Source: an uncultured Candidatus Saccharibacteria bacterium (lineage in GTDB: Bacteria > Patescibacteriota > Doudnabacteria > UBA920). From it: a DNA stretch of 24,000 nucleotides. The DNA is taken from assembly GCA_964650255.1 (NCBI GenBank), contig CAZYQT010000006.1, positions 1 to 24,000 on the forward strand, in the 5' to 3' direction. Both the position numbers and the translations under genes were made by a program. The notes beneath the pieces are model-generated. The model saw nothing but the letters and a program-made list of their open reading frames with translations, did not search any database and was not told where the DNA came from. Positions 1,267 to 23,827 of this stretch are shown here, piece by piece. How positions within the stretch are numbered: the stretch's first letter is position 1; the number at the start of each line of letters is the position of its first letter.

Positions 1267-3486
1267 ATGGGACGTAAAAAAAAGCGGTCGCGCGATAATG
1301 ACGAGTCCGAATCTTCCATCCTTAAGTCCATCCCGAAACCAAAATTAGATTTAGCTTCTGAAAGCAAACGCGGCATTGCTGTGGTTGTTTTCGTAGTTTT
1401 AGCTGGGATTACAGCTTTGGCCATTCTCGATATTGCCGGTGGCTTGGGCCAATTTTTGAAAAAATTATTTTTTTTGTTGTTCGGAATCATCGCATACTTA
1501 ATGCCATTAGTTTTTTTGCTAATCGCTTATTTGTTGTTTAAGAGTACTCCAGACGAAGAAAACAAACACCCATACTTCCGCACTTACTTGGGAATGTTTT
1601 TAAGTGCTGGGAGCATAGCGGGATTGATCCACTCTTTTTCTATGGATGAACTTAATGGTGCAGTGGCCTTGGCAAATGCTGGTAAAGCAGGCGGCTGGCT
1701 CGGCGCATTATTTGGCGGGCCAATAATTGGGGCCTTTAAATTTTGGGCAGGTGATTTAATTTTAATTGGTATTCTCGTAATTGGAATTGTCATCACTTTG
1801 AATTTGTCGCCAATGCTGTGGTTCAAGAAAAAAGATGAAGAAGCAATACCAGAAACAACAGGGGAGAAAGTGAAAATTAATTCTTTGGCAGAGGCAGTTT
1901 TAGCGGCAGATAATAATACAGATGAAGAAAACGATGAAGAAGAACCAAGGCCAAAATTAACTCCTTCGATTAACTTAACTCCATCTGGCCCAAGCAAAGA
2001 AGATGAAGCGATTTCGAAAATGGAATCAATTATTATTGAAGACCGCCGCGACTGGAAGCTACCACCGTTTGATTTACTTGATGATAATAAAACCGAAGTT
2101 GATTCTGGAAACATTGAAAGTAATGTAACTATCATTCAAAAAACTTTAGCAGACTTTGGTATTGATGTAGAAATGGGAGAAGTGAATGTTGGCCCAACTG
2201 TGACGCAGTACACTCTTCGTCCAGCCACTGGTGTGAAGCTTTCACAAATTGCTGCTTTGCAAAATGATTTGGCGCTCGCGCTCGCTGCACACGCAATTCG
2301 TATGGAGCTACCTATCCCAGGCAAGGCGTTGGTCGGTATTGAAGTGCCAAACAAATCTACCGCGATCGTACGCCTTCGCGAAGTGATGCAAACTTCAGAC
2401 TTTGTGAACAACAAGGGCAAGCTCGCGCTCGCGCTTGGCCGCGATGTTGCTGGTCGCCCAATGATTGCTGACCTTGCCAAAATGCCGCACATGTTAATTG
2501 CTGGTGCTACTGGAACCGGAAAATCTGTGGCCATCAACAGTTTGTTTATTTCTTTGCTTTACCGCAACACTCCACAAGACATTAAGTTTATTGTGGTAGA
2601 CCCGAAGCGCGTGGAGCTTAATATGTACAACGGCATTCCGCATCTTTTGACTCCTGCCATTACTGAATCCGACAAAGCAGTTAATGCACTTAAGTGGGCT
2701 GTGGCGGAAATGGAAAGACGTTACAAGCTACTTGCCGAAGCTGGTAATCGAAACATTGCTGACTACAATGCTGCCACTGAACTGCATTTGCCTTACATTG
2801 TTATTATTGTTGATGAGTTAGCCGACCTTATGGCTGTTGCCCAGCAAGATGTTGAAGCTGCAATTGTGAGGCTGGCGCAAATGGCTCGTGCGGTTGGTAT
2901 TCACCTTATTCTTGCAACCCAGCGCCCAAGCGTGGAAGTTATTACTGGACTTATTAAAGCAAACATTACTTCGCGCGCTGCATTTGCTGTGGCATCGCAA
3001 GTCGACTCTCGTACTATTTTGGATTCATCGGGTGCAGAAAAACTTTTGGGCAATGGAGACATGTTGTTTGTTTCAGCAGAATTTAATAAGCCAAAGCGCG
3101 TACAAGGAGCTTTCGTTGGTGAACAAGAAGTGCGCAAAGTCGTTGACTTCTTTAAGAATCAAGCTGGTGCAGTAATTTACAACGAAGAAGTTACAGAAAA
3201 ACCAAAACGTGGTTTGGGAATTCCAGGTATGGGTGGTGGTGATGGCGGTAGTGATGAAGACGATTTGTTTGATGCAGCCAAGGAAGAAGTGATGCGTGCT
3301 GGAAAAGCTTCTGCTTCTTTGCTCCAGCGTCGCTTGCGTATTGGTTACGCCCGCGCTGCTCGTCTCCTCGACATATTAGAAGACAGGGGAATTATCGGGC
3401 CAGGTGATGGTGCCAAGCCTCGCGAAGTGTACGCCGTGTCCGATGCGGAACGCGCGGAGTATGGCAGCGAGACCGAAGAAGTTTAA
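1267..3486 (+). CDS. ftsK: DNA translocase FtsK/SpoIIIE
   Basis: N-terminal polytopic membrane region and an acidic linker. Motor domain with Walker A GATGTGKS and Walker B IVIIVDELADL. C-terminal gamma winged-helix (SLLQRRLRIGYARAARLLDILE). Confidence 0.95.
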   Translation: MGRKKKRSRDNDESESSILKSIPKPKLDLASESKRGIAVVVFVVLAGITALAILDIAGGLGQFLKKLFFLLFGIIAYLMPLVFLLIAYLLFKSTPDEENKHPYFRTYLGMFLSAGSIAGLIHSFSMDELNGAVALANAGKAGGWLGALFGGPIIGAFKFWAGDLILIGILVIGIVITLNLSPMLWFKKKDEEAIPETTGEKVKINSLAEAVLAADNNTDEENDEEEPRPKLTPSINLTPSGPSKEDEAISKMESIIIEDRRDWKLPPFDLLDDNKTEVDSGNIESNVTIIQKTLADFGIDVEMGEVNVGPTVTQYTLRPATGVKLSQIAALQNDLALALAAHAIRMELPIPGKALVGIEVPNKSTAIVRLREVMQTSDFVNNKGKLALALGRDVAGRPMIADLAKMPHMLIAGATGTGKSVAINSLFISLLYRNTPQDIKFIVVDPKRVELNMYNGIPHLLTPAITESDKAVNALKWAVAEMERRYKLLAEAGNRNIADYNAATELHLPYIVIIVDELADLMAVAQQDVEAAIVRLAQMARAVGIHLILATQRPSVEVITGLIKANITSRAAFAVASQVDSRTILDSSGAEKLLGNGDMLFVSAEFNKPKRVQGAFVGEQEVRKVVDFFKNQAGAVIYNEEVTEKPKRGLGIPGMGGGDGGSDEDDLFDAAKEEVMRAGKASASLLQRRLRIGYARAARLLDILEDRGIIGPGDGAKPREVYAVSDAERAEYGSETEEV

Positions 3487-4482: not shown

Positions 4483-4875
4483 ATGGTACCAAGTTTTGAC
4501 AGTAATGGCTTAGCTGATGGCCTTACGGAAATGGATGAGGCGTCCAAAGCTCGATTGGAAGAATGGAAGGAAGCAATTAACAAACTTCCTGATACTGAGG
4601 ACTTTGATACAGACACACTCTCCAATCAAGCTTACATCTTAATACAAGGGGCGCTAGATGTAGGTTTTGATGAACATAGATCCCATGATGTGTTCTATCA
4701 ATTCAATCAAGGTGATCGAGCTCTCTTAACTGAAAGTTGCAATTGCAGTAGCGGTAGTCTGTGCCCGGCTAGACAAGCGAAAGTTAGATTCGATGGAACA
4801 TGGAATGAAGCTTACGCCGAGATGGTCAAGCTTTTGAAAAATAAAGCTAACCAAATTCCACAACCACCTGTGTGA
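4483..4875 (+). CDS. Hypothetical acidic protein, 130 aa (operon ORF1)
   Basis: AGGAGG lies 6 nt upstream of the ATG. No family recognised. Confidence 0.65.
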   Translation: MVPSFDSNGLADGLTEMDEASKARLEEWKEAINKLPDTEDFDTDTLSNQAYILIQGALDVGFDEHRSHDVFYQFNQGDRALLTESCNCSSGSLCPARQAKVRFDGTWNEAYAEMVKLLKNKANQIPQPPV

Positions 4876-4898
4876 AAACAGTTAAATCTTTTAGGTTC

Positions 4899-4971
4899 GA
4901 GAGGTCCTATTAAAACCTCTCACTGTCTCGAAGTGAATACTTCGACTGATGAGCTCAAAAGAGCGAAACAG
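4899..4971 (+). ncRNA. 7-bp hairpin (4899-4921) plus type III hammerhead ribozyme (4923-4971), copy 1
   Basis: CUGUC|UCGAAG-UGAAUA-CUUCGA-CUGAUGA-GCUC-AAAA-GAGC-GAAA-CAG. All invariant core positions are present, with a GUC cleavage triplet. Predicted cleavage falls after C4927. Confidence 0.88.
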
Positions 4972-5045
4972 AAAATCCAGCATGTGACTGGTTCGCGGGC
5001 TGATAAGGATCGCGCGAGACATTAAGCAATAGGAGGAAATTAAAT

Positions 5046-5417
5046 ATGCAAAATTTGTTGACTAACAAATTAGAAGCTGACTTAGCAGCTGTAGTTGCCA
5101 CTGAAGCATTTAATGATGCTGCGCACGCTGCTGAGTGGAAATTTGTTGAGTATGTGAACATTAAACAATTTAATGGTTCCATATCAGCAACTGCTATATA
5201 TTCATCAGATGATGTGATATTAGTATACGCTAATGGCTATGGTGACAAAAACCATTTTGCTCATTCGTTTTTGAGGCACACCTTGGAGAAGGCGGGCTTC
5301 GCGTATGCTGAGATAAATCTATATTTATCAATTCACACTGGATTAAGGCCTTGTTTAGTAATTTCTGATTACGATAAGTCTGTGAGTCCAGCTGAGTATA
5401 TATCTAGCAGGCTTTAA
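5046..5417 (+). CDS. Hypothetical protein, 123 aa (operon ORF2, bracketed by the two ribozymes)
   Basis: AGGAGG at 5031-5036 lies 9 nt upstream of the ATG. No family recognised. Confidence 0.65.
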   Translation: MQNLLTNKLEADLAAVVATEAFNDAAHAAEWKFVEYVNIKQFNGSISATAIYSSDDVILVYANGYGDKNHFAHSFLRHTLEKAGFAYAEINLYLSIHTGLRPCLVISDYDKSVSPAEYISSRL

Positions 5418-5649
5418 TTGCGCTGTTTAAATAAACAGTTCGCAATATCCCAGAGCTTAGTCTGACTGGGGGATATCTAATTTAATGCGCTATGAAAGAC
5501 CGAAAAGCGCGAAGCAGTATGTGACTGTGGACAGTGAATTAGACTAAATATCATGTCGTGAGACAGCAATATTTAGAAATTAATAAGCTCCACGTGATAG
5601 CCGTTTGTCTATCAACCTCCCCGCTCAAGTAGGTTTAAACCTTGAGCAC

Positions 5650-5722
5650 AGGAGATTCTAATAAAATCTCCTTCTGTCTCGAAGTGAATGCTTCGACTGA
5701 TGAGGCCAAAAGGACGAAACAG
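5650..5722 (+). ncRNA. 7-bp hairpin (5650-5672) plus type III hammerhead ribozyme (5674-5722), copy 2
   Basis: CUGUC|UCGAAG-UGAAUG-CUUCGA-CUGAUGA-GGCC-AAAA-GGAC-GAAA-CAG. The core is identical to copy 1. Stem II has one G.A mismatch and one compensated pair. Predicted cleavage falls after C5678. Confidence 0.8.
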
Positions 5723-5755
5723 ACAAATATGATAGTCAATCAATAGGGGGTGTGT

Positions 5756-6163
5756 ATGTTAAAGATTGAAAATGATGAGTTTAAGAACTTTCCTGTTGAT
5801 CAGCAGGTAAATATTATCCATAAAGCAATTATGGCTGATGATGATATAGAATTTTTCTTTTATGAACTGAAATGCGGTGTGGAAGAAAAAAAGTCCATTT
5901 ACAAGGCTCACTGTAAAAATCAAACGAGAGATGGGTCAATAGTTCGAATGTTTGAAGCTATGGATTTAAGTGATGTTGAAAAACAGGAATTAGCAGAGTG
6001 CGCGATTACTGCAATTATCTCAAATAAATTTTTGAGCTCTGCAAGATATAGATATGACATGCTCTCAAAATATCTTAGTTCAGACAAGCAGGCAAAGTTT
6101 TCTGCCGTGCTTGAGGATCGTGAGCATCAATCTTCATTGCGTAAAAGTGTTCTAGGTATATGA
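5756..6163 (+). CDS. Hypothetical protein, 135 aa (operon ORF3)
   Basis: The track starts at GTG 5750. I prefer ATG 5756 because AGGGGG (5745-5750) would then be a properly spaced SD. No family recognised. Confidence 0.6.
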   Translation: MLKIENDEFKNFPVDQQVNIIHKAIMADDDIEFFFYELKCGVEEKKSIYKAHCKNQTRDGSIVRMFEAMDLSDVEKQELAECAITAIISNKFLSSARYRYDMLSKYLSSDKQAKFSAVLEDREHQSSLRKSVLGI

Positions 6164-8572: not shown

Positions 8573-10825
8573 ATGCCAAAGAAAGCTGCGGTTAAGACCG
8601 CGCCTAAATCAGAACAACTATATTGCAGTGTGGACCTGGAGTTTACCGGGTTCGATCCGAGCAGAGACCAAATTTTAGAAATTGGATTTGCGTTTTTTAG
8701 GTTGTCCAGCAAAGGATTCGAAGTTGTTGAAGAGTGGTCGCAAGTTTTTAAGCCATCAATAGAAGTTCATCCAAAAATTTTAGGCTTAACTGGTATTACC
8801 CAACAAGAGTTAGATGAAGCTCCTGAGTTCAGCGAATTTCGCGAAGAGTTGCAATCAAAATTAGGCGATGCGATTATAGTCGGCCACAACCCTGTAATGG
8901 ATGTTAAGTTCTTAGAAAGTTATGGGCTCAAGTTATCTGGAAAGATTGTTGACACCCTCGAGTTAGTCCAATTTATTTTGCCAACACACCACAGTTATAA
9001 TCTAGAAAACTTGGTGCATTATTTCGGGATCAAGCATCACAAAGCTCATCGTGCTTTAGGTGATGCTTTGTCGACCATTAAGGTGCTAGAAAATCTAACC
9101 AAAATTTATCAAAATTTTAGTGAGACCCTAAAAGCCGAGTTGCAAGAAGTAACTGACCGAGGAGATTTTTTGTGGACCAAGATTTTAGAAACTGAATTGA
9201 AATCGAAAAAAGCACAAAGTAACGATTCTCTGAAACATGTATTTACTAAAGGAAAAGTTTCCGCGTTAAAGTTAAGTCCAAATTTAATTACTATTGATGC
9301 CTCCCCTGATCATCACGAAGTTCGGGCAGCGGTTGGTTTACAAAAGGAGAACAAGTCATCAGTAATCGCTGTTGCAAATGCAAACACGGTAATGCAATTA
9401 TGGCAGAACGGATTTGCGCATGGTGTGTTTCGCAGCGAAGACACTTTTTCTGAAAGCGCTTTCAAAAAGTTTTTAAAAAGTGCACAGACTAGTGAAGAGT
9501 TAAGATTTTGTCTAAAGATCATTGTGTGGCTACACACCAACTGGCAAACCGAAGCAGTGTTCGATTTGAACATTTCTTTTTTTGGCGGGCAGTTTCGACA
9601 ACATATTGTTGGCGGTAAACCAGTTTTAAGAACTGAACCGGTAATCGCAATTGACTATGTTACTTTAGAATCTTTTGCTGCTCAAAAGAAATCTTCCCCG
9701 ATCGCTAATCGTAATTTGTTAATTTGTGATATTCAGGAATTTGAAAAATACATTAGTACTGGGTTTGGCACACGTTTGGGCTGGGCTAATGTTTTGTATG
9801 CACTCCGTTCAATTTATAACCCAGAAACTGAGTTTGGAAATTTAAAACTGAAAGATGAAATTGTGAATGCGCTCGTGGCAACGGATTTATTTTTTGGATT
9901 AGCCTTTATGCTATTACATCAAGCTTTGCCTCACAGCCAATATGCCACCCTGGGTGAGGTAGAGCTAAACCATGGTCATGTGCACTCTAGGCTAAGACGC
10001 GCAGCCGAAAAACTTAAAGAGAAATTTGATAAGATTCTCAAAAATACAGAATCCCCAGAGTTGGCTAGGGCAAGCAGTTACCTGGAGTCCTTTTTCTATA
10101 GTGATCCAAATCGGGTAAAGTGGATCGATATAGATGAACGCAATTTGTCCTTTCATGATCAACCAATTGATATTGCAGAAGACGTTGCCAAGGTCCTGAA
10201 ATCTTTTACCAGTACTCGCTTTACTGCAATCATGGCAAATGATAAGTTACTTTTTTACCTTATCGATCGTCTCGGTTTGCATACGGAAAGTTCCGAGATA
10301 CTTAGCAATTCATTACCAAATACCTTTATTGTATCGAATGATACCGAGTCTGTTATAAGCAGAGAGTTTTTGTTTAAAGAAGTACAGAGTGCCACCTTAC
10401 CTGCAGTAGTGGTAATGCCAAACTTATCTGAAGTAAAGGAGTTCTACAATAGTTTCTACGATGAAATAAAGAAAGAAGCGGCTTTATTTGCCCAAGGCTA
10501 TTCAGGTGGCGGCAATAAGATGTTTCGCAACTTTAGTATTAACCCAAAAAGCATTCTATTAGTAACTGCTGAGTTTATGGGTAAACAAAATTATATGATT
10601 CCTGCCAAAACAGTTATTTTTGCGGGCTTACCTACAGTAGAACGTAGCCATCCGTATACATCAGCATTAATTTCGTACTGGCAAGGCAAGCACCCGGAAT
10701 TGGAATCATTGCTTTCCTTCTCAAAGATGGCCGCTGCATTAAAAAAGATAAAAGTTTCCGGTAAAGTACGCTTAAAAATATTTTCTAAGGAAAAAGTTTT
10801 GTATTTTGTGGACAAGTCCCGTTGA
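8573..10825 (+). CDS. DnaQ-like DEDDh 3'-5' exonuclease fused to a DinG-like helicase-like region with degenerate motifs
   Basis: The N-terminus carries exonuclease motifs (SVDLEFTG, GHNPVMDVKFL, HRALGDA). The C-terminus (VIFAGLPTVERSHPY) resembles the end of DinG/XPD helicases. I found no Walker A GxxxxGK[ST] in the translation. Confidence 0.6.
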   Translation: MPKKAAVKTAPKSEQLYCSVDLEFTGFDPSRDQILEIGFAFFRLSSKGFEVVEEWSQVFKPSIEVHPKILGLTGITQQELDEAPEFSEFREELQSKLGDAIIVGHNPVMDVKFLESYGLKLSGKIVDTLELVQFILPTHHSYNLENLVHYFGIKHHKAHRALGDALSTIKVLENLTKIYQNFSETLKAELQEVTDRGDFLWTKILETELKSKKAQSNDSLKHVFTKGKVSALKLSPNLITIDASPDHHEVRAAVGLQKENKSSVIAVANANTVMQLWQNGFAHGVFRSEDTFSESAFKKFLKSAQTSEELRFCLKIIVWLHTNWQTEAVFDLNISFFGGQFRQHIVGGKPVLRTEPVIAIDYVTLESFAAQKKSSPIANRNLLICDIQEFEKYISTGFGTRLGWANVLYALRSIYNPETEFGNLKLKDEIVNALVATDLFFGLAFMLLHQALPHSQYATLGEVELNHGHVHSRLRRAAEKLKEKFDKILKNTESPELARASSYLESFFYSDPNRVKWIDIDERNLSFHDQPIDIAEDVAKVLKSFTSTRFTAIMANDKLLFYLIDRLGLHTESSEILSNSLPNTFIVSNDTESVISREFLFKEVQSATLPAVVVMPNLSEVKEFYNSFYDEIKKEAALFAQGYSGGGNKMFRNFSINPKSILLVTAEFMGKQNYMIPAKTVIFAGLPTVERSHPYTSALISYWQGKHPELESLLSFSKMAAALKKIKVSGKVRLKIFSKEKVLYFVDKSR

Positions 10826-14632: not shown

Positions 14633-15952
14633 ATGAAAAAAATATTCCAACGATTTAGCTCTTCTTTGCTCATAATCGCGTTAATTGCGCTGCCGCTTTT
14701 ATCTATTGGCTGTGGTTGTGATCCGGCAAAAGATCCCGAATGTCGCAAACCAGGACCTGTAACTTTAAAAATTTGGAAGCCTTTTGTAGATACAGATAAA
14801 ATGCAAAGTATTATTTCTGCGTATCAATCAAAACATAGTAATGTTACTATCGAGTACACTAAAAAAAATATTGAAAACTACGAAGAGGATTTGGCGGATG
14901 CCCTAGCAGCAGAAGAGGGCCCTGATATTTACTCAATTAATAATACCTGGGTGCCACGGTATATGAACAAGATTGTCCCTGCCCCGGAAAAAGTGTTTAC
15001 AGTTAAAGAGTATAAAGACACTTTTGTGGATGCAATGGTTACTGACTTAATACGTGACGATAAAATTTATGGAACAGCTATGTGGGTGGATTCATTGGGG
15101 CTGTACTACAACAAGGACTTGATGGGTACCGCCGGTATTGCAACGCCGCCAAAAACATGGGCTGAACTTGCAGATGATACTCGTCGGATAGTGCGCCAAG
15201 ATGCTGACGGCTATTTTAGTCGTAGCGGACCAGCCATTGGCACTAACAAAAACGTGAATCGAGGCGTTGATGTTATTTATCTGTTAATGCTTCAAGCGGG
15301 AGCAGTCCCTTGGGCATCTGATGGGAGCGCCCCTACATTTGCCAATAACGTTACTCGCGGCGGGAACTCTACTAATCCTGGGCAAGAAGCCGTCTCATTT
15401 TATACTTCCTTTTCCGATCCTAATAGCGCTAATTATAGTTGGAATGAAGAAAGTGATTATTCTATTGATGCATTTGCTAATGGTCGCGCTGCGTTTTTGT
15501 ATGGGTATTCTTATACCCGAAGCATTATAGATAGCAAAGCCCCAAATCTTAATTATGATGTAGCCCCGGTGCCGCAAAATAATTTGGTAAATCCTACTGT
15601 TAACTATTCAAATTATTTTGCCGAGGTGGTAAGTAAGCAAAGTAAGCAACAAGCTTGGGCCTGGGACTTTTTAAAGTTTGCGACCAGTAAAGCCTCTTTG
15701 GATGGTTACTATAAAACTGATAAAGAGCCATCCTCGCGTCGCGATCTTATTGAGCTACAAACCAGTGACCCAGACATTGGGGTATTCGCACATGCCAACT
15801 TAACAGGCAAAACTTTCTATAAGGGTAATGAAGGGAAATTCGATGCAATTATTGGCGATATGATTGATGATATTGTTCTACGTGGCCAGGCCGTAGATCA
15901 GGCATTGAACCGGGCTCAGTCGCAAGCTCAGACTTTATCGTTAACCAGGTAG
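14633..15952 (+). CDS. Extracellular solute-binding protein (ABC transporter family-1 type), probable lipoprotein
   Basis: Signal peptide ending LLSIGC|GC. The sequence and length are typical of sugar-type SBPs. No permease or ATPase gene is adjacent. Confidence 0.7.
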   Translation: MKKIFQRFSSSLLIIALIALPLLSIGCGCDPAKDPECRKPGPVTLKIWKPFVDTDKMQSIISAYQSKHSNVTIEYTKKNIENYEEDLADALAAEEGPDIYSINNTWVPRYMNKIVPAPEKVFTVKEYKDTFVDAMVTDLIRDDKIYGTAMWVDSLGLYYNKDLMGTAGIATPPKTWAELADDTRRIVRQDADGYFSRSGPAIGTNKNVNRGVDVIYLLMLQAGAVPWASDGSAPTFANNVTRGGNSTNPGQEAVSFYTSFSDPNSANYSWNEESDYSIDAFANGRAAFLYGYSYTRSIIDSKAPNLNYDVAPVPQNNLVNPTVNYSNYFAEVVSKQSKQQAWAWDFLKFATSKASLDGYYKTDKEPSSRRDLIELQTSDPDIGVFAHANLTGKTFYKGNEGKFDAIIGDMIDDIVLRGQAVDQALNRAQSQAQTLSLTR

Positions 15953-15966
15953 AAGAAAATAGCAAT

Positions 15967-16827
15967 ATGAATTTTATCAAAAAATTATCATCAGCAGTTT
16001 TATTGGCAGCAGCTGCTTTGGTGTTGATCGCGCCTAGCTTTTTGTTAACTCCACGGACTGTCCAGGCTGAATCTTGTAGCCCATTATTTTTAGTGCGACC
16101 TTCTCAGAATCAAGCTGGCTCCGACGGCGTGATTGTTAAACCAGCAGACGCTAAGAAAGTTTATTTAGATGTAAAATTTAGTCTTAACGGCCCGAGCACA
16201 TGTCAAGGACCAGCATACGTTGTGGCCAAGTGGAACAATGCAAAAACTACAATCACAAATAATGTAGACAAAGTTTTTAATTACACCAGCGTCCCCGCAA
16301 GAGAAGGCGTGTATAGAATTGAACTACAGATTCCGAATAGTGGTTTCGGTAAAGAGGTTACTGTAACTGTTGCCGATGACGTTCTTCATCCGCCAGCCGG
16401 TGGGATTGGGACTGAGAATGGAAGTCACGTGCAGCCAACTGACAAGCCAACGAATGGTAGCAAGGGCGGGTTTGTACCTTGTGGCAATACTGCAGATAAT
16501 CCTTGCCAAATTGGTCATCTATTTTCCGCATTTATTGTAATCATCAATTATCTAATGGCCATGGCAGGGTTTGTGGCAGTACTAGCAATTATTTTTGCCG
16601 GGTTTATGATGATCTATTCTCAAGGACAAGAGAAGCTTAAAGAAGCCAAGGGCCGTTTTACAGGAGCAATCTTTGGGTTGGTGTTAGTGGCGGCGGCATT
16701 TGTCTTGATTAACTCTCTTTTCGCTGGCAGCTTGAGTATTGGTGTAAAAGATGGCGGTAAAATTTTATCAGACCCTCTCGAGTATATTAATACGAGAAGT
16801 AGTACTACTAATTCAAATACAAGATAA
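15967..16827 (+). CDS. Pilin-like paralog P1: signal peptide, beta-rich N-terminal domain and C-terminal VirB2/TrbC-like two-helix module
   Basis: Signal peptide ...TVQA|E. The C-terminus reads IINYLMAMAGFVAVLAIIFAGFMMIYSQGQEKLKEAKGRFTGAIFGLVLVAAAFVLI. Confidence 0.75.
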   Translation: MNFIKKLSSAVLLAAAALVLIAPSFLLTPRTVQAESCSPLFLVRPSQNQAGSDGVIVKPADAKKVYLDVKFSLNGPSTCQGPAYVVAKWNNAKTTITNNVDKVFNYTSVPAREGVYRIELQIPNSGFGKEVTVTVADDVLHPPAGGIGTENGSHVQPTDKPTNGSKGGFVPCGNTADNPCQIGHLFSAFIVIINYLMAMAGFVAVLAIIFAGFMMIYSQGQEKLKEAKGRFTGAIFGLVLVAAAFVLINSLFAGSLSIGVKDGGKILSDPLEYINTRSSTTNSNTR

Positions 16828-16832
16828 TACCT

Positions 16833-17231
16833 ATGAAGCATTTACTAGCGCTGAATAATAATTCCGGCGGCATCAAAATAAATAGCAACACCGGCAATAA
16901 TTCAAATCAGACTGGTTCTGGTTCGGGCACTGGTACTGGTGGTAATGCCAATAATTTTACTTTGGTTAAACCGGGTAAGATTACTGATGTTTTCAATGGC
17001 AAGTCTTTGCTTCAAATTGGAACTATGTTCATCAATTTTCTTTTGGCCATGATTGTAATTGCTGCAGTGGTGGTAATTGTTATTGCCGGATTCAAGATGG
17101 TTTTAGGTGGTGCCAACGAATCGCAAATCGCCAAGCAAAAAAAAGCCATTGTCTATGCCATTGCTGGTTTGGTGGTAGCGTTTATGTCGTTTGCCATTGT
17201 CCAAATTGTTCAAAACTTTATTCAGAAATAA
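16833..17231 (+). CDS. Pilin-like paralog P2: N/G/S/T-rich N-terminus with no obvious signal peptide
   Basis: The C-terminus reads FINFLLAMIVIAAVVVIVIAGFKMVLGGANESQIAKQKKAIVYAIAGLVVAFMSFAIVQIV. Confidence 0.7.
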   Translation: MKHLLALNNNSGGIKINSNTGNNSNQTGSGSGTGTGGNANNFTLVKPGKITDVFNGKSLLQIGTMFINFLLAMIVIAAVVVIVIAGFKMVLGGANESQIAKQKKAIVYAIAGLVVAFMSFAIVQIVQNFIQK

Positions 17232-17232
17232 A

Positions 17233-18153
17233 ATGCGAAAAACTGTGCAAAATTTGAAACTATTTTTTTACAGGCTGGGGCTAACTATTTTTGTCGCGTT
17301 CTTATTGATGGGGAGTAGTTCTACAACTGCCCATGCTCAAGCCAGCGCTACAGCCACAGACGGACGATGTGTAACAATCAAAGTATTTCTAATTAATTCA
17401 GCGGCCAACACCCCAGCCAATATAACCAGAATTAAAATTTCTGATGCTGGTAAATACGCTCTTCAGGTTGATATCAAAACTAATTTCGGCTGTACAGTTA
17501 ATGGAAAGTACACGTTAAAAGGTCAAACTTATGAGAATCAAAATGGTACCAATACTACCCCGCAAGAAACTTTTTATTTTGCTAACAGGCAGCCTGTCAC
17601 AACAAATGATTTTGCAAAGCGAACGGATGCCTTTGGCAGGCCAGCACATCCTTATTCGTATGTATATACTCTAGATTATGATAGCGACGATCTTTCCACT
17701 AATCTTTCCGCTCATATTACAATTACTTTTACGGACGACAAGGGTAATTCAGGTTCAACCCCAGGAAGCGGCGGTGGCAGTGGTAGCGGCAGCGGTACGG
17801 GCAGTAACAGTAATGTTCCTCCAAACAACAGTGTTCCGAATGAAGATATAAAAACTGATACAGATTTTACTTTAGTTAACTTAGATGATCCAATTGGCAC
17901 TTTTGATAATTTACTAAATTTCGGCTCAGTTCCGGAAGCAATTGTTAGCCTCATCAGGATATTGTTTATATTAATTGGTATTTCCGCAGTGATAGTCATA
18001 ATTATTGCTGGGTTCCGAATGGTTGTAGACAGCGGAAATGAGACGCAAATGAAGAAAGCCAAGGAAGCAATTACGTGGTCAATCGTTGGTCTAATAGTTT
18101 CTATTTTAGCGTTTAGTATTGTGGCAATTATTCAAAGAATTATTCAAGGTTAA
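17233..18153 (+). CDS. Pilin-like paralog P3: signal peptide, beta-rich domain, Gly/Ser linker and pilin module
   Basis: The ATG at 17233 sits 1 nt after the P2 stop codon, so the tracked upstream extension is an artifact. Signal peptide ...TAHA|QA. The C-terminus reads LIRILFILIGISAVIVIIIAGFRMVVDSGNETQMKKAKEAITWSIVGLIVSILAFSIV. Confidence 0.75.
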   Translation: MRKTVQNLKLFFYRLGLTIFVAFLLMGSSSTTAHAQASATATDGRCVTIKVFLINSAANTPANITRIKISDAGKYALQVDIKTNFGCTVNGKYTLKGQTYENQNGTNTTPQETFYFANRQPVTTNDFAKRTDAFGRPAHPYSYVYTLDYDSDDLSTNLSAHITITFTDDKGNSGSTPGSGGGSGSGSGTGSNSNVPPNNSVPNEDIKTDTDFTLVNLDDPIGTFDNLLNFGSVPEAIVSLIRILFILIGISAVIVIIIAGFRMVVDSGNETQMKKAKEAITWSIVGLIVSILAFSIVAIIQRIIQG

Positions 18154-18154
18154 A

Positions 18155-18595
18155 ATGATGATAAAATTTTCTAAATTTATTTGTGCAGTAGCAACGGCTT
18201 TGGCGTTGCTTGTTCCCCAAATTGCTTTAGCTGCAAACAATAACAATGGTAGTGCTAATGGCTCCGCTGGTAAGACAGACACCTGCGCGACTCTTAAGCA
18301 ACAGTTTGATAATGCCAATGGCTCCAATGTGATTGCTAATATTCCCCAGTACTGCCGCATAGAATTTGTTTATCAAAAATTTATTAATACTGCTCTGTAT
18401 TTCATTGGTATTGTGGCAGTAATTGCCGTAATATACGGCGGTTATTTGTACATGACGGCTGGTGGCAACGCAGCCCAAGTTAAAAAGGGCCGGTCGGTAT
18501 TGACTTGGGCAATAATTGGCTTAGTAGTAGTGCTGGCGGCTGCTGTAATTGTGAATGTGGTGGTGAACTTGCTTGTTGAAAACAAATTTGTATAA
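18155..18595 (+). CDS. Pilin-like paralog P4 (short form)
   Basis: The ATG at 18155 sits 1 nt after the P3 stop codon. Signal peptide ...QIALA|A. Module: FINTALYFIGIVAVIAVIYGGYLYMTAGGNAAQVKKGRSVLTWAIIGLVVVLAAAVIV. Confidence 0.75.
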   Translation: MMIKFSKFICAVATALALLVPQIALAANNNNGSANGSAGKTDTCATLKQQFDNANGSNVIANIPQYCRIEFVYQKFINTALYFIGIVAVIAVIYGGYLYMTAGGNAAQVKKGRSVLTWAIIGLVVVLAAAVIVNVVVNLLVENKFV

Positions 18596-18667
18596 TCCGC
18601 AAGTTTTCAGTAAAATATAGATACGTTACATATCATATAAATCCACACTTGAAAGGTGGTGAAAACA

Positions 18668-19105
18668 TTGAAACAAACCTTAAAAAAACTTAATTGGTTG
18701 AACGTTGCACTATTTGTAATAGTAACTGTAGTATCAATCGCTCCAGTTCTAGCTACTGCTGCGGCTCCCCGCTTAGCAGACGCTCAACTCATCAACCAAT
18801 TCGTTAATAACTGTCCTGCTGATACTGGAGTGCGTTGTTCCGAAGGGAGCATTGCTTCTATTTTCCGCTTGATCATCAACTGGGCGTTGGCAATTGCCTT
18901 TATCGCTGCTGTAATTATGCTTATCTATGGTGGTTTCCGTTACATCACTTCTGCTGGTAACTCTGACCAGGCTACTACAGGTAAGACTGCAATCGTGAAT
19001 GCTTTGATTGGTATAGTTATTATCGTTCTATCATACATTATTGTTCAGATCGTTTACCGCTTCGTTGCTGGTAATGGCACTGGCGGAGTTCTCGGCGGAC
19101 CGTAA
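18668..19105 (+). CDS. Pilin-like paralog P5 (short form), probable TTG start
   Basis: TTG 18668 lies 8 nt after AAAGGTGG and aligns with the TTG start of P6 (MKQTLKKLNW vs MKLENKKFNW). Module: IINWALAIAFIAAVIMLIYGGFRYITSAGNSDQATTGKTAIVNALIGIVIIVLSYIIVQIVY. Confidence 0.75.
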   Translation: MKQTLKKLNWLNVALFVIVTVVSIAPVLATAAAPRLADAQLINQFVNNCPADTGVRCSEGSIASIFRLIINWALAIAFIAAVIMLIYGGFRYITSAGNSDQATTGKTAIVNALIGIVIIVLSYIIVQIVYRFVAGNGTGGVLGGP

Positions 19106-19119
19106 TTAAAAACAAGAAT

Positions 19120-19521
19120 TTGAAATTAGAAAACAAAAAATTTAATTGGACTAGTGTTGCATCAATGTTGGTGGCTTTAGCGATAGTTTTGGCCCCAGCG
19201 GTGTTGCCTCATGTTGCAATGGCTCAGCAAGGAATAGGGCAAATGCCTTGTCCTCGCGACCTGGGATATTTGTGTACTGATGGCAGCGTTGCCTCTATAT
19301 TTAGATTAATTCTAAACTGGGCAATGACTATTGCTTTCCTTGCAGCAGTTATCTATTTAATCTACGGTGGATTTCAATACATCTCTTCCGCAGGTAATAC
19401 AGATAAAGCAACCAAGGGACGCGCAACAATTGTGAATGCCATTATTGGCATAGTAATAATTGTCTTGTCATATACTATAGTTCAAATTGTGTACAACTTT
19501 GTTGTCAGCCCTACTCGGTAG
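19120..19521 (+). CDS. Pilin-like paralog P6 (short form), TTG start
   Basis: Closest paralog of P5. Module: ILNWAMTIAFLAAVIYLIYGGFQYISSAGNTDKATKGRATIVNAIIGIVIIVLSYTIVQIVY. Confidence 0.75.
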   Translation: MKLENKKFNWTSVASMLVALAIVLAPAVLPHVAMAQQGIGQMPCPRDLGYLCTDGSVASIFRLILNWAMTIAFLAAVIYLIYGGFQYISSAGNTDKATKGRATIVNAIIGIVIIVLSYTIVQIVYNFVVSPTR

Positions 19522-19610
19522 GTGACATAGAAATGGTTTTCCCGCACTCGCTGCGGGATAGCTCCGGGAATAAAATTTAATATTTTACTTCCGGAATTAT
19601 TAAAACAATT

Positions 19611-20027
19611 ATGACAAAAAAAATCTTTTTACCATTAGTCGCTACAATGATCTTCGTTACTTCGATTTTCATGGGTCCGACTTTGGCTGTATCGCAAGTA
19701 CACGCGCAGAGCACAACTAACACTGGCGACAAAGTCCAGGATGGACTAACTGATATTGGCGCAGCTTATCCTGCCGGCGCAAAGCAAGAGCGCAATTTAA
19801 AAGACGTTATTCGCAAAGTTATTAACTGGGCGTTGTATTTCGCTGCTATCATTGCCGTTATCTTTATAATCATTGGTGGATTTATGTACATAACTTCTGC
19901 TGGTGATCCTGGTAAAGCAACTAAAGGCCGCACTACATTGGTTAATGCTTTAATTGGTTTAACAATTATCGTACTATCTTACTTGATTGTTCAGATTGTT
20001 TACAACTTCCTGATCAACCGAACATAA
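19611..20027 (+). CDS. Pilin-like paralog P7 (short form)
   Basis: Signal peptide ...QVHA|Q. Module: VINWALYFAAIIAVIFIIIGGFMYITSAGDPGKATKGRTTLVNALIGLTIIVLSYLIVQIVY. Confidence 0.78.
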   Translation: MTKKIFLPLVATMIFVTSIFMGPTLAVSQVHAQSTTNTGDKVQDGLTDIGAAYPAGAKQERNLKDVIRKVINWALYFAAIIAVIFIIIGGFMYITSAGDPGKATKGRTTLVNALIGLTIIVLSYLIVQIVYNFLINRT

Positions 20028-20042
20028 TTCTAGTCATTTAAC

Positions 20043-20867
20043 GTGAAAATTTCGCAAAAATTTTTGAATAAATTTTCCATGGCCATGCTACTGCTATTGA
20101 GCATGGCTTTTTTGGGTGTTGGTTTTGTATTTAAAGCCCATCCAGCTGAGGCAGCAACGATTGATGTGTGTATCAATCGTAGCAATGGCAATCTAGATTA
20201 CCCAACTAATAATCAGTGTCCAACAAATTTTGAATTAGCTACTGGAATCTCCACTCAGTATGGCGGTGTTTGCATTGCTCAAGAAGAAGATACAGGGCGT
20301 TTCGGAATAGTTTATCCTACTGGCGAATATGAATTGGATAGAAACGGTAAAACTTGTGTCTTAAGTTCAGACCACGCAACCCCAATTGGTGATTTTGTAA
20401 GATTGAGAACAACTGGAACCGGTGGTGGTAGTGGGGACCCTGTTGATCCAGGTGGTAGTGGTTCAGGGCCAGGTTCTGGTTCCGGCAGTGGAAGCGGTTC
20501 AGGCTCAGGGTCTGGATCGGGATCATCGACAACAAGTAATGCTGCCTGCGATCCACCACAAGAAGGCTTCCATAAGGTTGGGCCACTTTGTGTTCCCAAT
20601 AGCCCATTCACTAACAAAGATGCTCCGATTAACTCTCCAACAGCAGCTGGGCTTGCCGTAAAGATCATCAAAATAGCATTGTATTTTGCAGGCATAGTGG
20701 CAGTAATTATGATGATTATTGGTGGTTATCAGGTCATGACTGCTGGCGCGAATGCAACCCAAGCCACTGATGGTCGCAAAACCCTTACCAATGCTATTAT
20801 TGGCTTAGTCATAGTGATTTTGTCGTACATTGTCATCCAGGCTATTACTAATTACCTCACTAAATAA
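20043..20867 (+). CDS. Pilin-like paralog P8: signal peptide, Cys-containing N-terminal domain, long Gly/Ser linker and pilin module
   Basis: GTG start; an internal ATG start is possible. Signal peptide ...PAEA|A. Linker: (GS)n. Module: IIKIALYFAGIVAVIMMIIGGYQVMTAGANATQATDGRKTLTNAIIGLVIVILSYIVIQAI. Confidence 0.75.
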   Translation: MKISQKFLNKFSMAMLLLLSMAFLGVGFVFKAHPAEAATIDVCINRSNGNLDYPTNNQCPTNFELATGISTQYGGVCIAQEEDTGRFGIVYPTGEYELDRNGKTCVLSSDHATPIGDFVRLRTTGTGGGSGDPVDPGGSGSGPGSGSGSGSGSGSGSGSGSSTTSNAACDPPQEGFHKVGPLCVPNSPFTNKDAPINSPTAAGLAVKIIKIALYFAGIVAVIMMIIGGYQVMTAGANATQATDGRKTLTNAIIGLVIVILSYIVIQAITNYLTK

Positions 20868-20944: not shown

Positions 20945-21031
20945 GCCGGAGTGGCGAAATTGGCAGACGCACCAGCCTTAGGAGCTGGCGGGGGCAACCC
21001 TGTGGAGGTTCAAGTCCTCTCTCCGGCACCA
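20945..21031 (+). tRNA. tRNA-Leu, anticodon UAG, class II with long variable arm and encoded CCA
   Basis: Acceptor GCCGGAG/CTCCGGC. Anticodon stem CCAGC/GCTGG with loop CTTAGGA. Variable arm of about 15 nt. T arm GGAGG-TTCAAGT-CCTCT. Discriminator A followed by CCA. Confidence 0.92.
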
Positions 21032-21052: not shown

Positions 21053-22930
21053 ATGGGTAAAATTATTAAAAATATCATCTTAATCCTGATTGGATTTTTG
21101 ATTATCTCTGTGGTGATTGCCGCCTTTACCACTCACAAAGAAACCAAGGTAGTAGCGTTGTCCGAAGTTGGGCAAATGATTAAAGATGATAAAGTTGAGA
21201 CTTTAGAAGTTAGCTCCTCGGAATTAGAAGTTAAACTTAAGGGTGATAATACAAAACAAAAAGCCAACCTTGGTTTGAATACAGACATCCCGAAGTATTT
21301 TGTAGACAGTGGTGTGCCAGCAGACAAATTGGCGAATGTAAAAATTGAATTTAAAACTCCAAGTGCTGCTAGCGAAGTTGCTGGCGCGATTTTGCCATTC
21401 TTAATTCCGTTCGTGTTAATTGCTTTGTTCATTTATTTCCTAATGCGCCAAGTGCAGGGTTCAAACAATCGCGCTTTAACTTTTGGACAGAGTTCAGTGA
21501 AGTTATCTGATGAGCAAAAGAACAAAGTGCGTTTTGCAGATGTAGCTGGTGCGAAAGAGGCAAAAGAAGAGTTGTCCGAAATTGTGCAGTTCTTAAAATT
21601 TCCACAAAAGTTTTTAGCGTTAGGTGCAAAAATCCCTAAAGGTGTTTTGTTGCTTGGTTCTCCGGGTGTTGGTAAGACTATGTTGGCTCGTGCAGTTGCC
21701 GGGGAAGCGAACGTACCGTTCTTCCATATTAGTGGTTCTGAGTTCGTAGAAATGTTTGTCGGTGTTGGTGCATCTCGTGTGCGTGATTTATTTAAGAAAG
21801 CAAAGCGCAATGCTCCTTGTATTGTGTTCATCGATGAAATTGATGCTGTTGGTCGCCAGCGGGGAGCAGGGCTCGGCGGTGGTCATGATGAACGCGAACA
21901 AACCTTGAACCAAATCTTAGTTGAGATGGATGGTTTTGAAACAGACACAAATGTAATCGTAGTAGCAGCGACCAACCGTCCAGATGTTTTGGATCCTGCG
22001 CTTCTTCGTCCCGGCCGGTTTGATCGTCAGGTCATTTTGGATTTACCAGACATTAATGACCGAGAAGCGATTTTGCAAATCCACAGTAAAAACAAACCGT
22101 TTGGCACTGGCGTAAATCTTCGCAAGATTGCTGAACGCACCCCTGGATTTTCAGGAGCCGATTTAGCTAACTTAGTTAATGAAGCGGCGATTTTGGCGGC
22201 TCGTACAGATAAAAAAGTTATAGATAACGAGGATTTAAAGGAAGCGATTGAAAAGATTGTTGTGGGTCCATCTCGCAAAAGCCACCTAATGTCTGATTAT
22301 GAAAAGAAGGTAACAGCTTACCACGAAGGTGGTCATGCCTTGGTGGGGGCGGTGTTGCCAGAAGCTGACCCTGTCCATAAAGTGACTATTCTTTCACGTG
22401 GTCGTGCTCTTGGATATACTTTAAAGTTGCCGGTTGAAGACAAGCACATGCATACCAAACAAAGTTTCTTGGATGAAATTGCATCCGCCATGGGTGGGTA
22501 TGCAGCAGAAAAATTGGTGTTTGGTGAATTAACCACGGGCGCCTCTAATGACCTGGAAAAGGCAACGAAATCTGCTCGACGATTGGTAACCCAGTTTGGT
22601 ATGAGTGATGTTATGGGCCCTGTTGTGTTGGGCGATCGCCACGAAAATGTTTTTCTGGGACGTGATCTTGGCGAACAAAGAAATTACAGTGAAGCTACTG
22701 CTCAACAAATTGATGCCGAGGTGCGCCGAATTTTAGTTGATGCAGAAGAGCGAGCCACTCAAATTATGACTCAGCACCGTGCCTATTTAGATATCATCGC
22801 AGATCGGTTGGTGAAAGAAGAAACTTTGGAACAGGAGGCCTTCACGGAAATAGTTAAGGATATTATCCCTCCAGATAAAAAGATGGTTCCTGAATTCAAG
22901 AATACTGACTTAGATAACGAAGTGGAGTAG
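21053..22930 (+). CDS. ftsH: ATP-dependent zinc metalloprotease FtsH
   Basis: N-terminal transmembrane helices, Walker A GSPGVGKT, Walker [10 protein letters not shown] and the HEGGHA zinc site. The tracked start at 20951 overlaps the tRNA, so ATG 21053 (MGKIIKNI...) is the real start. Confidence 0.95.
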
Positions 22931-22942
22931 TTCGCAGTAAAC

Positions 22943-23827
22943 TTGCCGGCAGTGCAAAATAAAAATATTTTCCGCCATGCATACGTCTTGACCTTAAAAA
23001 ACCCTTTGCTGTGGTTATTTGGTCTGGTACTGTTTGGCGGATTTAATTTATACTTAGTTAATTTTTTTGCCCTTCTGCCGGATAAATACAACTGGTCATC
23101 AATTTCATTTTGGTATATCTTTGCGCAGATCTCAGATGACGCCGGAATATTTTTACTGATTTCGATTATAGCATTTCTACTTTTGAATTTAGTAAAAGTA
23201 AACTTTATTGTTGCTGCGCACAATTTGATTCACACGACCAGTGAAGATAAGTGTCAGTTGTGCCATCATCGGAAAAATCTAGATTCTCCCCAATCGCGGT
23301 TGTATGCTGTCTGGTGGGGAAGGATATTGTTGGCAAGTTTGTACACAGTTTTTTTAACAATGATATTTTCAGTCCCGAGTAATATTTTTGCAGTTCATAA
23401 TTCCTATACGAATGTGGCCGCAATGATTTTAAATTTGTTTGCTTTGATTATAGTTGTCGCAGCCATTGGTACTTGGAATGCTTTTACAGGCTACTTTATT
23501 GTTTGGTACGGATTAGGCTTCCGAGCGGCCGCGCAAGCCGCAGCCAGTTTAATAGTTACAAGGTTTAAGAAAATTTTGGAATTTGTGGTGGTTTTATCAA
23601 TTATTTATACTATTTCAGTTGTAATCGGAAATGCCTTTATCCACGCATGGCAACATGGTGTTCCAGGTCTAGAGCAGGGTGGTGCGCGCGTTATATTCCT
23701 GTTGATGTTTGTGCTTTGGCTAGCTGTAAATAATACTTATTTTAATTTGGCTTTCTTATTGTTTTTCGACAGCACAGTTACAGCTATTCCAGCCGAGAAA
23801 CCAGAAGCCTTGCCACAGGCACAATAA
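22943..23827 (+). CDS. Hypothetical polytopic membrane protein, about 294 aa
   Basis: Long ORF with at least 6 hydrophobic helices. The start is uncertain (TTG 22943 or GTG 22952). No family recognised. Confidence 0.55.
   Translation: MPAVQNKNIFRHAYVLTLKNPLLWLFGLVLFGGFNLYLVNFFALLPDKYNWSSISFWYIFAQISDDAGIFLLISIIAFLLLNLVKVNFIVAAHNLIHTTSEDKCQLCHHRKNLDSPQSRLYAVWWGRILLASLYTVFLTMIFSVPSNIFAVHNSYTNVAAMILNLFALIIVVAAIGTWNAFTGYFIVWYGLGFRAAAQAAASLIVTRFKKILEFVVVLSIIYTISVVIGNAFIHAWQHGVPGLEQGGARVIFLLMFVLWLAVNNTYFNLAFLLFFDSTVTAIPAEKPEALPQAQ

Follow-up and report, generated by a model that had tools for sequence, protein, structure and literature searches.

Patescibacteria live attached to other bacteria. In Saccharibacteria, McLean et al. 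found small VirB2-related proteins with signal peptides, encoded in arrays of 4-6 (bioRxiv 10.1101/258137). Wang et al. (2023) located a predicted pilin series inside the essential type IV secretion system (T4SS) cluster of Southlakia epibionticum, the one species tested, in which the T4SS and the pilin series proved essential for epibiotic growth (PMC10633639). A survey with the profiles PF18895 and PF04956 by Quinonero-Coronel et al. (2025) counted 1,948 assemblies with VirB2-like pilins, 1,135 that have them near virB4 and 813 that do not, and 441 pilin arrays of 2-11 genes, with a mean identity of 25%, in 383 assemblies (PMC12102498). A review from 2025 discusses the Patescibacteria arrays as possibly the first pilus of a monoderm T4SS (PMC12857230), the monoderm systems of the MPF_FATA type being said to lack VirB2 homologs (PMC12102498). 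Here, we analyze one such array, eight tandem genes on the + strand at positions 15967-20867 of a 24,000-nucleotide (nt) stretch of DNA from contig CAZYQT010000006.1 (henceforth termed the window); we refer to the genes as open reading frames ORF1 to ORF8, or pilin paralogs 1 to 8.

What the locus adds to the published picture is positional orthology between genomes, the swapping of N-terminal heads including peptidoglycan-binding domains, a conserved location between a solute-binding protein gene and FtsH, and homology to proteins of Mycoplasma integrative and conjugative elements (ICEs), all of which is useful, if unsurprising to a specialist. The locus makes a clean data set for comparison, namely an ordered array with slowly evolving hairpins and rapidly swapped exported heads, and this pattern suggests which parts face outside and which subunits are structural. 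The reading that we consider probable is that the VirB2-like hairpins are stored in the membrane with their heads outward and that a T4SS encoded elsewhere in the genome builds them into an envelope or extracellular structure for host contact, with the short paralogs as building blocks and the headed ones as adaptors.

Gene array and family membership

The eight ORFs follow one another within 15967-20867 with intergenic gaps of 1-89 nt, and pilin genes identical to them are present in wastewater metagenomes. Being eight adjacent genes, they form an array in the sense of two or more pilin genes that stand in tandem or one gene apart and have low mutual identity. A shared C-terminal module of about 70-75 amino acids (aa) is alignable in all eight, with invariant columns A, V, G and G, and the alignment consensus is close to the one given in an earlier note on this DNA. 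That note had described eight same-strand tandem paralogs with a C-terminal two-helix module, a description confirmed by the ORF calls, the alignment and the profile matches given below. Its further statement that every paralog ends in the module fails for ORF1, which continues with a conserved C-terminal tail of 32 aa.

The Pfam family PF18895 (T4SS_pilin) matches all eight proteins at the position of the module and far above chance (E 1.8e-5 to 2.5e-11). Its gathering score of 26.6 bits is reached by six of them (29.7-43.9 bits), ORF1 and ORF8 falling short by 1.5 and 0.9 bits, respectively; orthologs of these two in related genomes clear the cut-off (e.g., 37.5 bits in relative L005). Nearly all of 117 ORF7 homologs bear PF18895, and so do all 90 long proteins of related arrays, 18 of which additionally match TrbC (E<=0.001). 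Judged by these profiles, the eight genes belong as paralogs to the T4SS pilin family of Patescibacteria, so that family membership is directly supported, and the family that the earlier note had named for genomes of the candidate phyla radiation is a real one. The same note had pointed to TrbC/VirB2 as well, and there the outcome is more modest: PF04956 gives sub-threshold matches only, to five of the eight proteins (ORF7 and four others, the latter at 15-19.5 bits), while three have no match.

For a comparison with genuine VirB2/TrbC proteins, we used a reference alignment of eight annotated genes situated between virB1 and virB3 on MPF_T plasmids. Aligned to this set with hhalign, the ORF7 family gives a weak match (E 2.4e-4) that covers helix 1 only and is in register. 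The eight window modules match the same set across the whole hairpin with E 0.0058 and a probability of 6%. The relation of the modules to classical VirB2 thus appears weak but consistent.

A second family comes closer. The NCBIfam model NF045849, which describes the Mbov_0395 family of pilin-like conjugal transfer proteins from Mycoplasma ICEs, matches all eight window proteins with 19.3-38.1 bits, below its equivalog cut-off of 40 bits. All 62 ORF7-family members match it as well, over nearly the full length of the 80-residue model and with a best E of 1.4e-17; the pLS20_p028 model (NF045890) is matched by four of the 62. On these scores the module is clearly related to the Mycoplasma family, though not an equivalog. 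The NF045849 matches therefore indicate relatives of the hairpin among monoderm conjugation systems, the class from which the Patescibacteria T4SS descends. Set against the statement that MPF_FATA systems have no VirB2 homologs, this homology means that the origin of the Patescibacteria pilins may merit re-examination.

Predicted topology and exported heads

Gene calls recorded on identical metagenome contigs have lengths of 286, 132, 306, 146, 149, 118, 138 and 262 aa for ORF1 to ORF8; all eight lie on the + strand, and several longest ORFs begin upstream of the called start. ORF1 (15967-16827; 286 aa; PF18895 25.1 bits against the cut-off of 26.6, E 1.8e-5) runs from a signal peptide through a beta-rich head of about 110 aa, a low-complexity linker and a GGFVPCGNxAxNPCQIGH disulfide-loop motif into the module (aa 184-254, nt 16516-16728) and the tail; it is also matched by a profile hidden Markov model (HMM) built from the eight window modules, and its exported part holds four Cys. 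In ORF2 (16833-17231; 132 aa; 29.7 bits), a G/S/N/T-rich N-terminal tail precedes the module (aa 57-132, nt 17001-17228). ORF3 (17233-18153; 306 aa as called, longest ORF from 17191; 34.5 bits) has a signal peptide, a beta-rich head with two Cys, a Gly/Ser (GS) linker and the module at nt 17926-18147; an identical protein (P0295) is on record. ORF4 (18155-18595; 146 aa as called, longest ORF from 18119; 35.9 bits) combines a signal peptide and a short head with a Cys pair with the module at nt 18356-18577. ORF5 (18656-19105; 149 aa; 39.8 bits), the most conserved of the short pilins, carries a signal peptide, a CPADTGVRC loop and the module at nt 18845-19069. ORF6 (19120-19521; 41.7 bits) has 133 aa if read from a TTG and 118 aa as called from 19165. 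ORF7 (19611-20027; 138 aa) gives the highest scores (PF18895 43.9 bits; TrbC E 2.6e-5; NF045849 38.1 bits) and consists of a signal peptide, a head of about 30 aa without Cys and the module at nt 19794-20015. ORF8 (20043-20867; 274 aa from a GTG, called as 262 aa from 20079; PF18895 25.7 bits against 26.6) has a signal peptide, a beta head with four Cys (aa 39-120), a disordered GS linker, a beta-hairpin at the conserved C..GFHKVGPLCVPNSPF motif, and the module at nt 20646-20861.

Structures were predicted with AlphaFold2 from ORF7 with 62 homologs and from ORF8 with 43 orthologs. The ORF7 model comprises a signal-peptide helix, an ill-defined head some 40 residues long and a hairpin of two helices (residues 63-94 and 100-136), with a predicted local distance difference test (pLDDT) score above 90. 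In the ORF8 model, a beta-rich head (residues 39-120; pLDDT about 95) is joined by a disordered Gly/Ser linker (127-166) to a small beta-hairpin at the GFHKVGPLCVPNSPF motif, which is followed by helices 201-236 and 238-273 (pLDDT 66-82 per 10-residue block). The confident hairpin prediction, together with the sub-threshold TrbC matches and the weak in-register alignment to genuine VirB2, upholds the VirB2-like layout that the earlier note had seen in the letters. Matches in the PDB obtained with the full-length alignment involved only Gly/Ser linkers in fusion constructs and were set aside.

Signal peptides are found in seven of the eight paralogs. The mature N-terminal parts of ORF1 to ORF8 contain 4, 0, 2, 2, 2, 2, 0 and 6 Cys, always an even number, and the modules contain none. 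In five paralogs, a Cys-x7-22-Cys loop stands immediately ahead of helix 1, and in the ORF8 ortholog alignment C43, C59, C77, C105 and C183 are invariant. Between the helices, each loop has 2-4 Lys and Arg residues, exceeding its Asp and Glu residues (0-3). Because of the signal peptides, the confinement of Cys to the mature N-terminal parts and the basic inter-helix loop, the predicted topology is N-out, loop-in and C-out, with the heads outside the membrane. This fits membrane-stored VirB2 and TraA, which have the same N-out, loop-in, C-out topology. The hairpin fold, as predicted, and the exported, Cys-paired heads are in this way directly supported.

For the ORF8 head (20148-20417), a search of 1.84 billion representative proteins detected six relatives only. 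Its assignment to a GBS_Bsp-like repeat, suggested by an in-register match of the single sequence to a protein of 1160 aa (P0301; E 1e-4 pairwise), was dropped, as the ortholog profile gave no support (hhalign E 0.53). A similarity between the ORF1 and ORF3 heads was not significant (E 0.2).

Signal peptides and small size would also suit secreted effectors or small membrane-active toxins of the holin or bacteriocin kind, and earlier papers treated the array of the Saccharibacterium TM7x as effectors, under labels such as 'putative effector genes' and 'Sec-secreted array'. With two conserved hydrophobic helices, each some 30 residues long, such proteins would, however, be retained in the membrane of the producer; the module is homologous to pilin-like families, and immunity, lysis and phage genes were not found nearby. 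We therefore regard an effector or toxin function as highly unlikely.

Orthologs and head exchange in related loci

For comparison, we collected 80 loci anchored on FtsH, labelled with L-numbers, and searched them with the module HMM. About 50 of the 80 carry 5-8 module genes just upstream of FtsH and on the same strand (FtsH identity >=64%), while Moranbacteria-like loci of this set have none. The window FtsH is 78-88% identical to that of metagenome-assembled genomes labelled Patescibacteria or Saccharibacteria and 70-77% identical to that of many from Ca. Doudnabacteria, which points to a Patescibacteria host genome, probably related to Doudnabacteria. The gene order u101-LspA-ComM-NTP-transferase-solute-binding protein-[array]-FtsH was found in 19 of the 19 relatives checked.

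Within the array, best-hit mapping is collinear, the window genes pairing by rank with the genes of the 7-gene arrays that the six closest relatives have. The exception is ORF5 and ORF6, which both map to a single gene at position -3. Their modules are 76% and their N-terminal regions 40% identical to each other; towards the orthologs, ORF5 keeps 80-92% identity in the module and 57-70% in the N-terminal region, and the ORF6 module is more diverged (71-77%). Because both genes correspond to one gene in the closest relatives, the alignments indicate that ORF5 and ORF6 are recent, lineage-specific tandem duplicates. Across all window paralogs, modules are 24-76% and N-terminal regions 3-40% identical. 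The claim in the earlier note that the regions upstream of the module differ entirely is accordingly right for most pairs, which do not align, but has to be qualified for ORF5 and ORF6 and for the Cys-Cys loop common to five paralogs.

Modules of positional orthologs are 47-92% identical, compared with 24-59% for paralogs within the window (ORF5/ORF6 excepted). Since ortholog modules are closer to each other than the window paralogs are, and since their order is collinear, the paralogs appear to be old and individually retained. Judging from these alignments, the array is an old, ordered set of paralogs with positional orthologs across a Doudnabacteria-like clade. The conservation of order and orthologs at FtsH identities of 64-88% counts in favour of non-redundant roles for the individual paralogs.

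Heads behave differently from modules. N-terminal regions of orthologs are 7-70% identical, while FtsH proteins of the same relatives are 80-85% identical. In the ORF1 orthologs of L003-L010, modules are 68-79% identical, and the head, which separates the signal peptide from the conserved GGFVPCGNxAxNPCQIGHLF motif, is absent or non-homologous: beta-rich in the window, it is a charged helical region in L004, a Cys-rich one in L010 and missing in four other close relatives. ORF3 and its orthologs share 61-73% identity in the module and 21-34% in the head. ORF2 orthologs have long heads in L010 and L009; those in L003, L004, L006 and L008 resemble ORF2 in having no signal peptide and in beginning with a polar tail rich in N, T, G and S, and the one in L057 has a normal signal peptide. 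In five more distant relatives, the positional orthologs of ORF8 bear PG_binding_1 heads in place of the four-Cys beta head (L033:7910-8734, L025:8292-9086, L023:8688-9482, L040:8356-9249 and L047:8181-9416) and retain the C..PLCVP(N/D)SP(F/Y) motif and the hairpin. Among the 90 long array proteins, heads match PG_binding_1 in six cases (E 1.6e-17), PG_binding_3 in one and an FN3-like domain in one, the others having no Pfam domain. Divergence is, as far as these comparisons go, concentrated in the exported N-terminal heads, which turn over and are swapped fast, while the modules evolve slowly; positional orthology and head swapping are read directly from the alignments. The PG_binding_1 domains on ORF8 orthologs and the exchange of the ORF1 head count in favour of the heads acting as binding modules.

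Such divergence could also be expected of an antigenic or host-range cassette, in which the eight genes would encode alternative major pilins, with one or a few in use at a time, directed against phage or host defences or suited to different hosts. The idea was put forward for Patescibacteria arrays in analogy to the VirB2 paralogs of Bartonella and Anaplasma (PMC12102498), and the low identity of paralog modules, the rapid evolution of heads and the lineage-specific duplication of ORF5/ORF6 agree with it. Conserved order and one-to-one positional orthologs across a deep clade, however, mean that the copies are not freely turning over, and the tight packing on one strand is operon-like. Moreover, a search for invertible elements and long inverted repeats gave nothing convincing, the inverted repeats in the array being short and imperfect, and promoter- and terminator-like sites within it occur at the level of shuffled controls. 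We consider such a cassette quite unlikely. By the same evidence, the variable surface repertoire proposed in the earlier note stands in so far as the heads vary and the role matches published proposals, but the genes are ordered, old paralogs and no free-running repertoire.

Possible role, surroundings and known systems

In the reading that we favour, most products, namely the seven with a signal peptide, would be exported N-terminus-first via Sec. Each would then form a helix-loop-helix hairpin in the cytoplasmic membrane, the basic loop in the cytoplasm and both ends outside, and would show its N-terminal head of 30-200 aa, disulfide-bonded and often carried on a Gly/Ser-rich tether, outside the membrane. 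If VirB2 and S. epibionticum are taken as a guide, a T4SS of the VirB4/VirB6 type encoded elsewhere in the genome might draw the hairpins from this membrane pool and assemble them into a pilus-like or channel-lining structure of the envelope for contact with the host bacterium. The conserved short paralogs 5, 6 and 7 would make up the bulk of this structure, and the long paralogs 1, 3 and 8 would be minor or adaptor subunits, the exchangeable heads of which bind the cell wall or the host surface. Polymerisation, dependence on a T4SS, the division of labour between paralogs and the host-contact role are the steps that we infer. The surface filament or adhesin function in an epibiont that the earlier note envisaged has already been proposed in the literature for such arrays.

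Several observations weigh against this reading. At the level of sequence, no window protein reaches the TrbC/VirB2 (PF04956) cut-off of 27.9 bits, the best score being 24.8 bits for ORF7; the hhalign probability between the ORF7 family and genuine VirB2/TrbC is 43%, and a profile search of the PDB with the module alone gave no match. At the level of structure, Foldseek searches of the PDB with the ORF7 and ORF8 models returned generic helical hairpins only, without a match for the ORF8 beta head; the sole conjugative pilin listed, the archaeal 8dfu, came at rank 37 with E 8 for the ORF8 model and is not evidence. In ORF2 a signal peptide was not found, and globular heads of 15-20 kDa, if present on all subunits, would presumably crowd a helical lattice of the VirB2 type. 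A pilus of PF18895 proteins has been reported for no organism (PMC12857230, PMC10633639). Finally, T4SS genes are absent from the 24,000-nt window and, in about 50 relatives, from the sequence within 10 kb of the corresponding array; in the window, this covers VirB4, VirB6, VirD4 and other T4SS ATPase or channel genes. The observation in the earlier note that no secretion machinery lies nearby therefore holds for the annotated ORFs of the window.

Further searches for the machinery used a Saccharibacteria contig (L087; CAVHLO010000001.1, 330172-350591), on which PF18895 genes stand beside a VirB4-like ATPase, TraC-like and PrgI proteins and a protein of 1134 aa, a neighbourhood that counts in favour of a link between the family and a T4SS in Patescibacteria. 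A phmmer search with the L087 T4SS proteins found no homolog among all ORFs of the FtsH-anchored loci. With a Saccharibacteria VirB4 query, all 120 proteins among the matches listed were >90% identical Saccharibacteria proteins, and none came from this clade. In Table S1 of the survey, one assembly of the GTDB class Doudnabacteria is listed as VirB4-positive (PMC12102498), the sole indirect evidence of this kind. In one close relative, the 10 kb downstream contain RNase III, SMC and S16. On L087 itself, the T4SS genes are divergent from four PF18895 genes, with a fifth 1.5 kb off, beyond an HSP20 gene; the cluster also includes a GDSL-lipase-like protein of 610 aa, and its 1134-aa protein is unannotated.

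Several of these points agree with the main alternative, in which the hairpin would be only an anchor, possibly oligomerising in the membrane, for the display of variable ectodomains (adhesins or cell-wall binders, for example), with neither a pilus nor a T4SS needed. The array never adjoins T4SS genes in this clade, the heads are globular and flexibly tethered and include PG_binding_1 domains, large heads would sit badly on all subunits of a VirB2 lattice, and a PF18895 filament is not reported in the literature. Yet the modules are conserved beyond the needs of an anchor, ORF5 orthologs being 80-92% identical in this part where FtsH is 81-85% identical, and the short paralogs have next to no head to display. 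Elsewhere, the family stands inside T4SS clusters and is essential together with them, and the module is homologous to pilin-like families of conjugation systems. We hold display on a mere anchor to be possible, if on balance improbable.

Returning to hairpins drawn from the membrane by a T4SS, a more specific form would be a fixed, differentiated VirB2-like set that builds a 'decorated' envelope filament or conduit: the short paralogs would form the shaft, and the long ones would contribute interchangeable, disulfide-stabilised heads, some of them peptidoglycan-binding, that grip the wall of the host or of the cell itself. We think this unlikely. The design may be a legacy of monoderm conjugation systems and not a loan from diderm VirB2; another possibility is that the set functions with no T4SS at all. 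If a decorated filament did exist, its modular head-on-hairpin design would be one not known from conjugative pili.

Upstream, the array is preceded by an orphan gene for an ABC-type solute-binding lipoprotein (14633-15952, + strand; SBP_bac_1 and SBP_bac_8 matches; lipobox LSIGC), which ends 14 nt ahead of ORF1 and has no permease or ATPase gene nearby. In all 19 relatives checked, the array has this gene as its immediate upstream neighbour (47-78% identity), and from its position the gene may be co-transcribed with the array; it is a conserved neighbour, and a functional link to the array may be considered a candidate only. Downstream, a tRNA-Leu gene (20945-21031, + strand; ARAGORN; Rfam RF00005, 55.9 bits) forms the 3' boundary of the array, followed by FtsH (21053-22930, + strand; Peptidase_M41, AAA and FtsH_ext matches), the conserved downstream anchor in the clade. 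The longest FtsH ORF, from a GTG at 20951, runs through the tRNA-Leu gene, so that the ATG at 21053 is the most likely true start.

The remaining ORFs of the window encode FtsK, TrmB, a RodZ-like protein, RecA, a DEDDh exonuclease, LspA, a ComM-like Mg-chelatase ATPase, a nucleotidyl transferase and a multi-transmembrane protein. FtsK (1267-3486) is a genuine FtsK with four transmembrane segments and alpha and gamma domains, and no coupling protein. In the 750-aa protein at 8573-10825, the DEDDh domain (RNase T/Pol III epsilon-like) occupies the first 172 residues only, the other approximately 580 having no Pfam match. Three small ORFs within 4483-6163 (130, 123 and 137 aa) are likewise without a Pfam match, as is the multi-transmembrane protein of 294 aa downstream of FtsH (22943-23827), which is conserved and has syntenic counterparts of 26-44% identity in close relatives. 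A phage origin was considered and discarded, there being no meaningful PHROG match.

Among known systems, the closest are the Patescibacteria arrays of S. epibionticum ML1 (SEML1_0006-0019) and Nanosynbacter lyticus TM7x (the 'Sec-secreted array'), which belong to the same Pfam family and, like the window array, consist of 2-11 tandem same-strand paralogs with signal peptides and about 25% mutual identity in hosts with small genomes. Unlike these two, the window array lies outside a T4SS cluster, in a housekeeping block (solute-binding protein-array-tRNA-Leu-FtsH) kept clade-wide, and three of its members have heads of 100-200 aa. With VirB2/TrbC proteins such as A. tumefaciens VirB2 and RP4 TrbC, the window proteins share the signal peptide, two hydrophobic helices with small-residue packing motifs, the short basic loop and a weak in-register sequence similarity; they differ in their sub-cut-off Pfam scores, the extra N-terminal heads and linkers and a monoderm-like source organism, and, in contrast to the VirB2/TrbC plasmid loci fetched for comparison, the array has no adjacent virB1, virB3 or virB4.

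The Mycoplasma ICE proteins of NF045849, and more weakly pLS20_p028 (NF045890), have the hairpin in common with the window proteins and match over nearly the full model, but the Mycoplasma protein is encoded by a single small gene on a mobile element, whereas the window holds a chromosomal array of genes with heads. The VirB2 expansions of Bartonella and Anaplasma resemble it in the tandem amplification and divergence of pilin genes, read there as variation of surface contacts (cited in PMC12102498); those are, however, canonical diderm VirB2 genes in virB operons of intracellular pathogens, while in the window order and orthology have been stable over a long evolutionary distance. In size, divergence, taxon and distance from virB4, the window array fits the published Patescibacteria arrays and is not a new kind of system.

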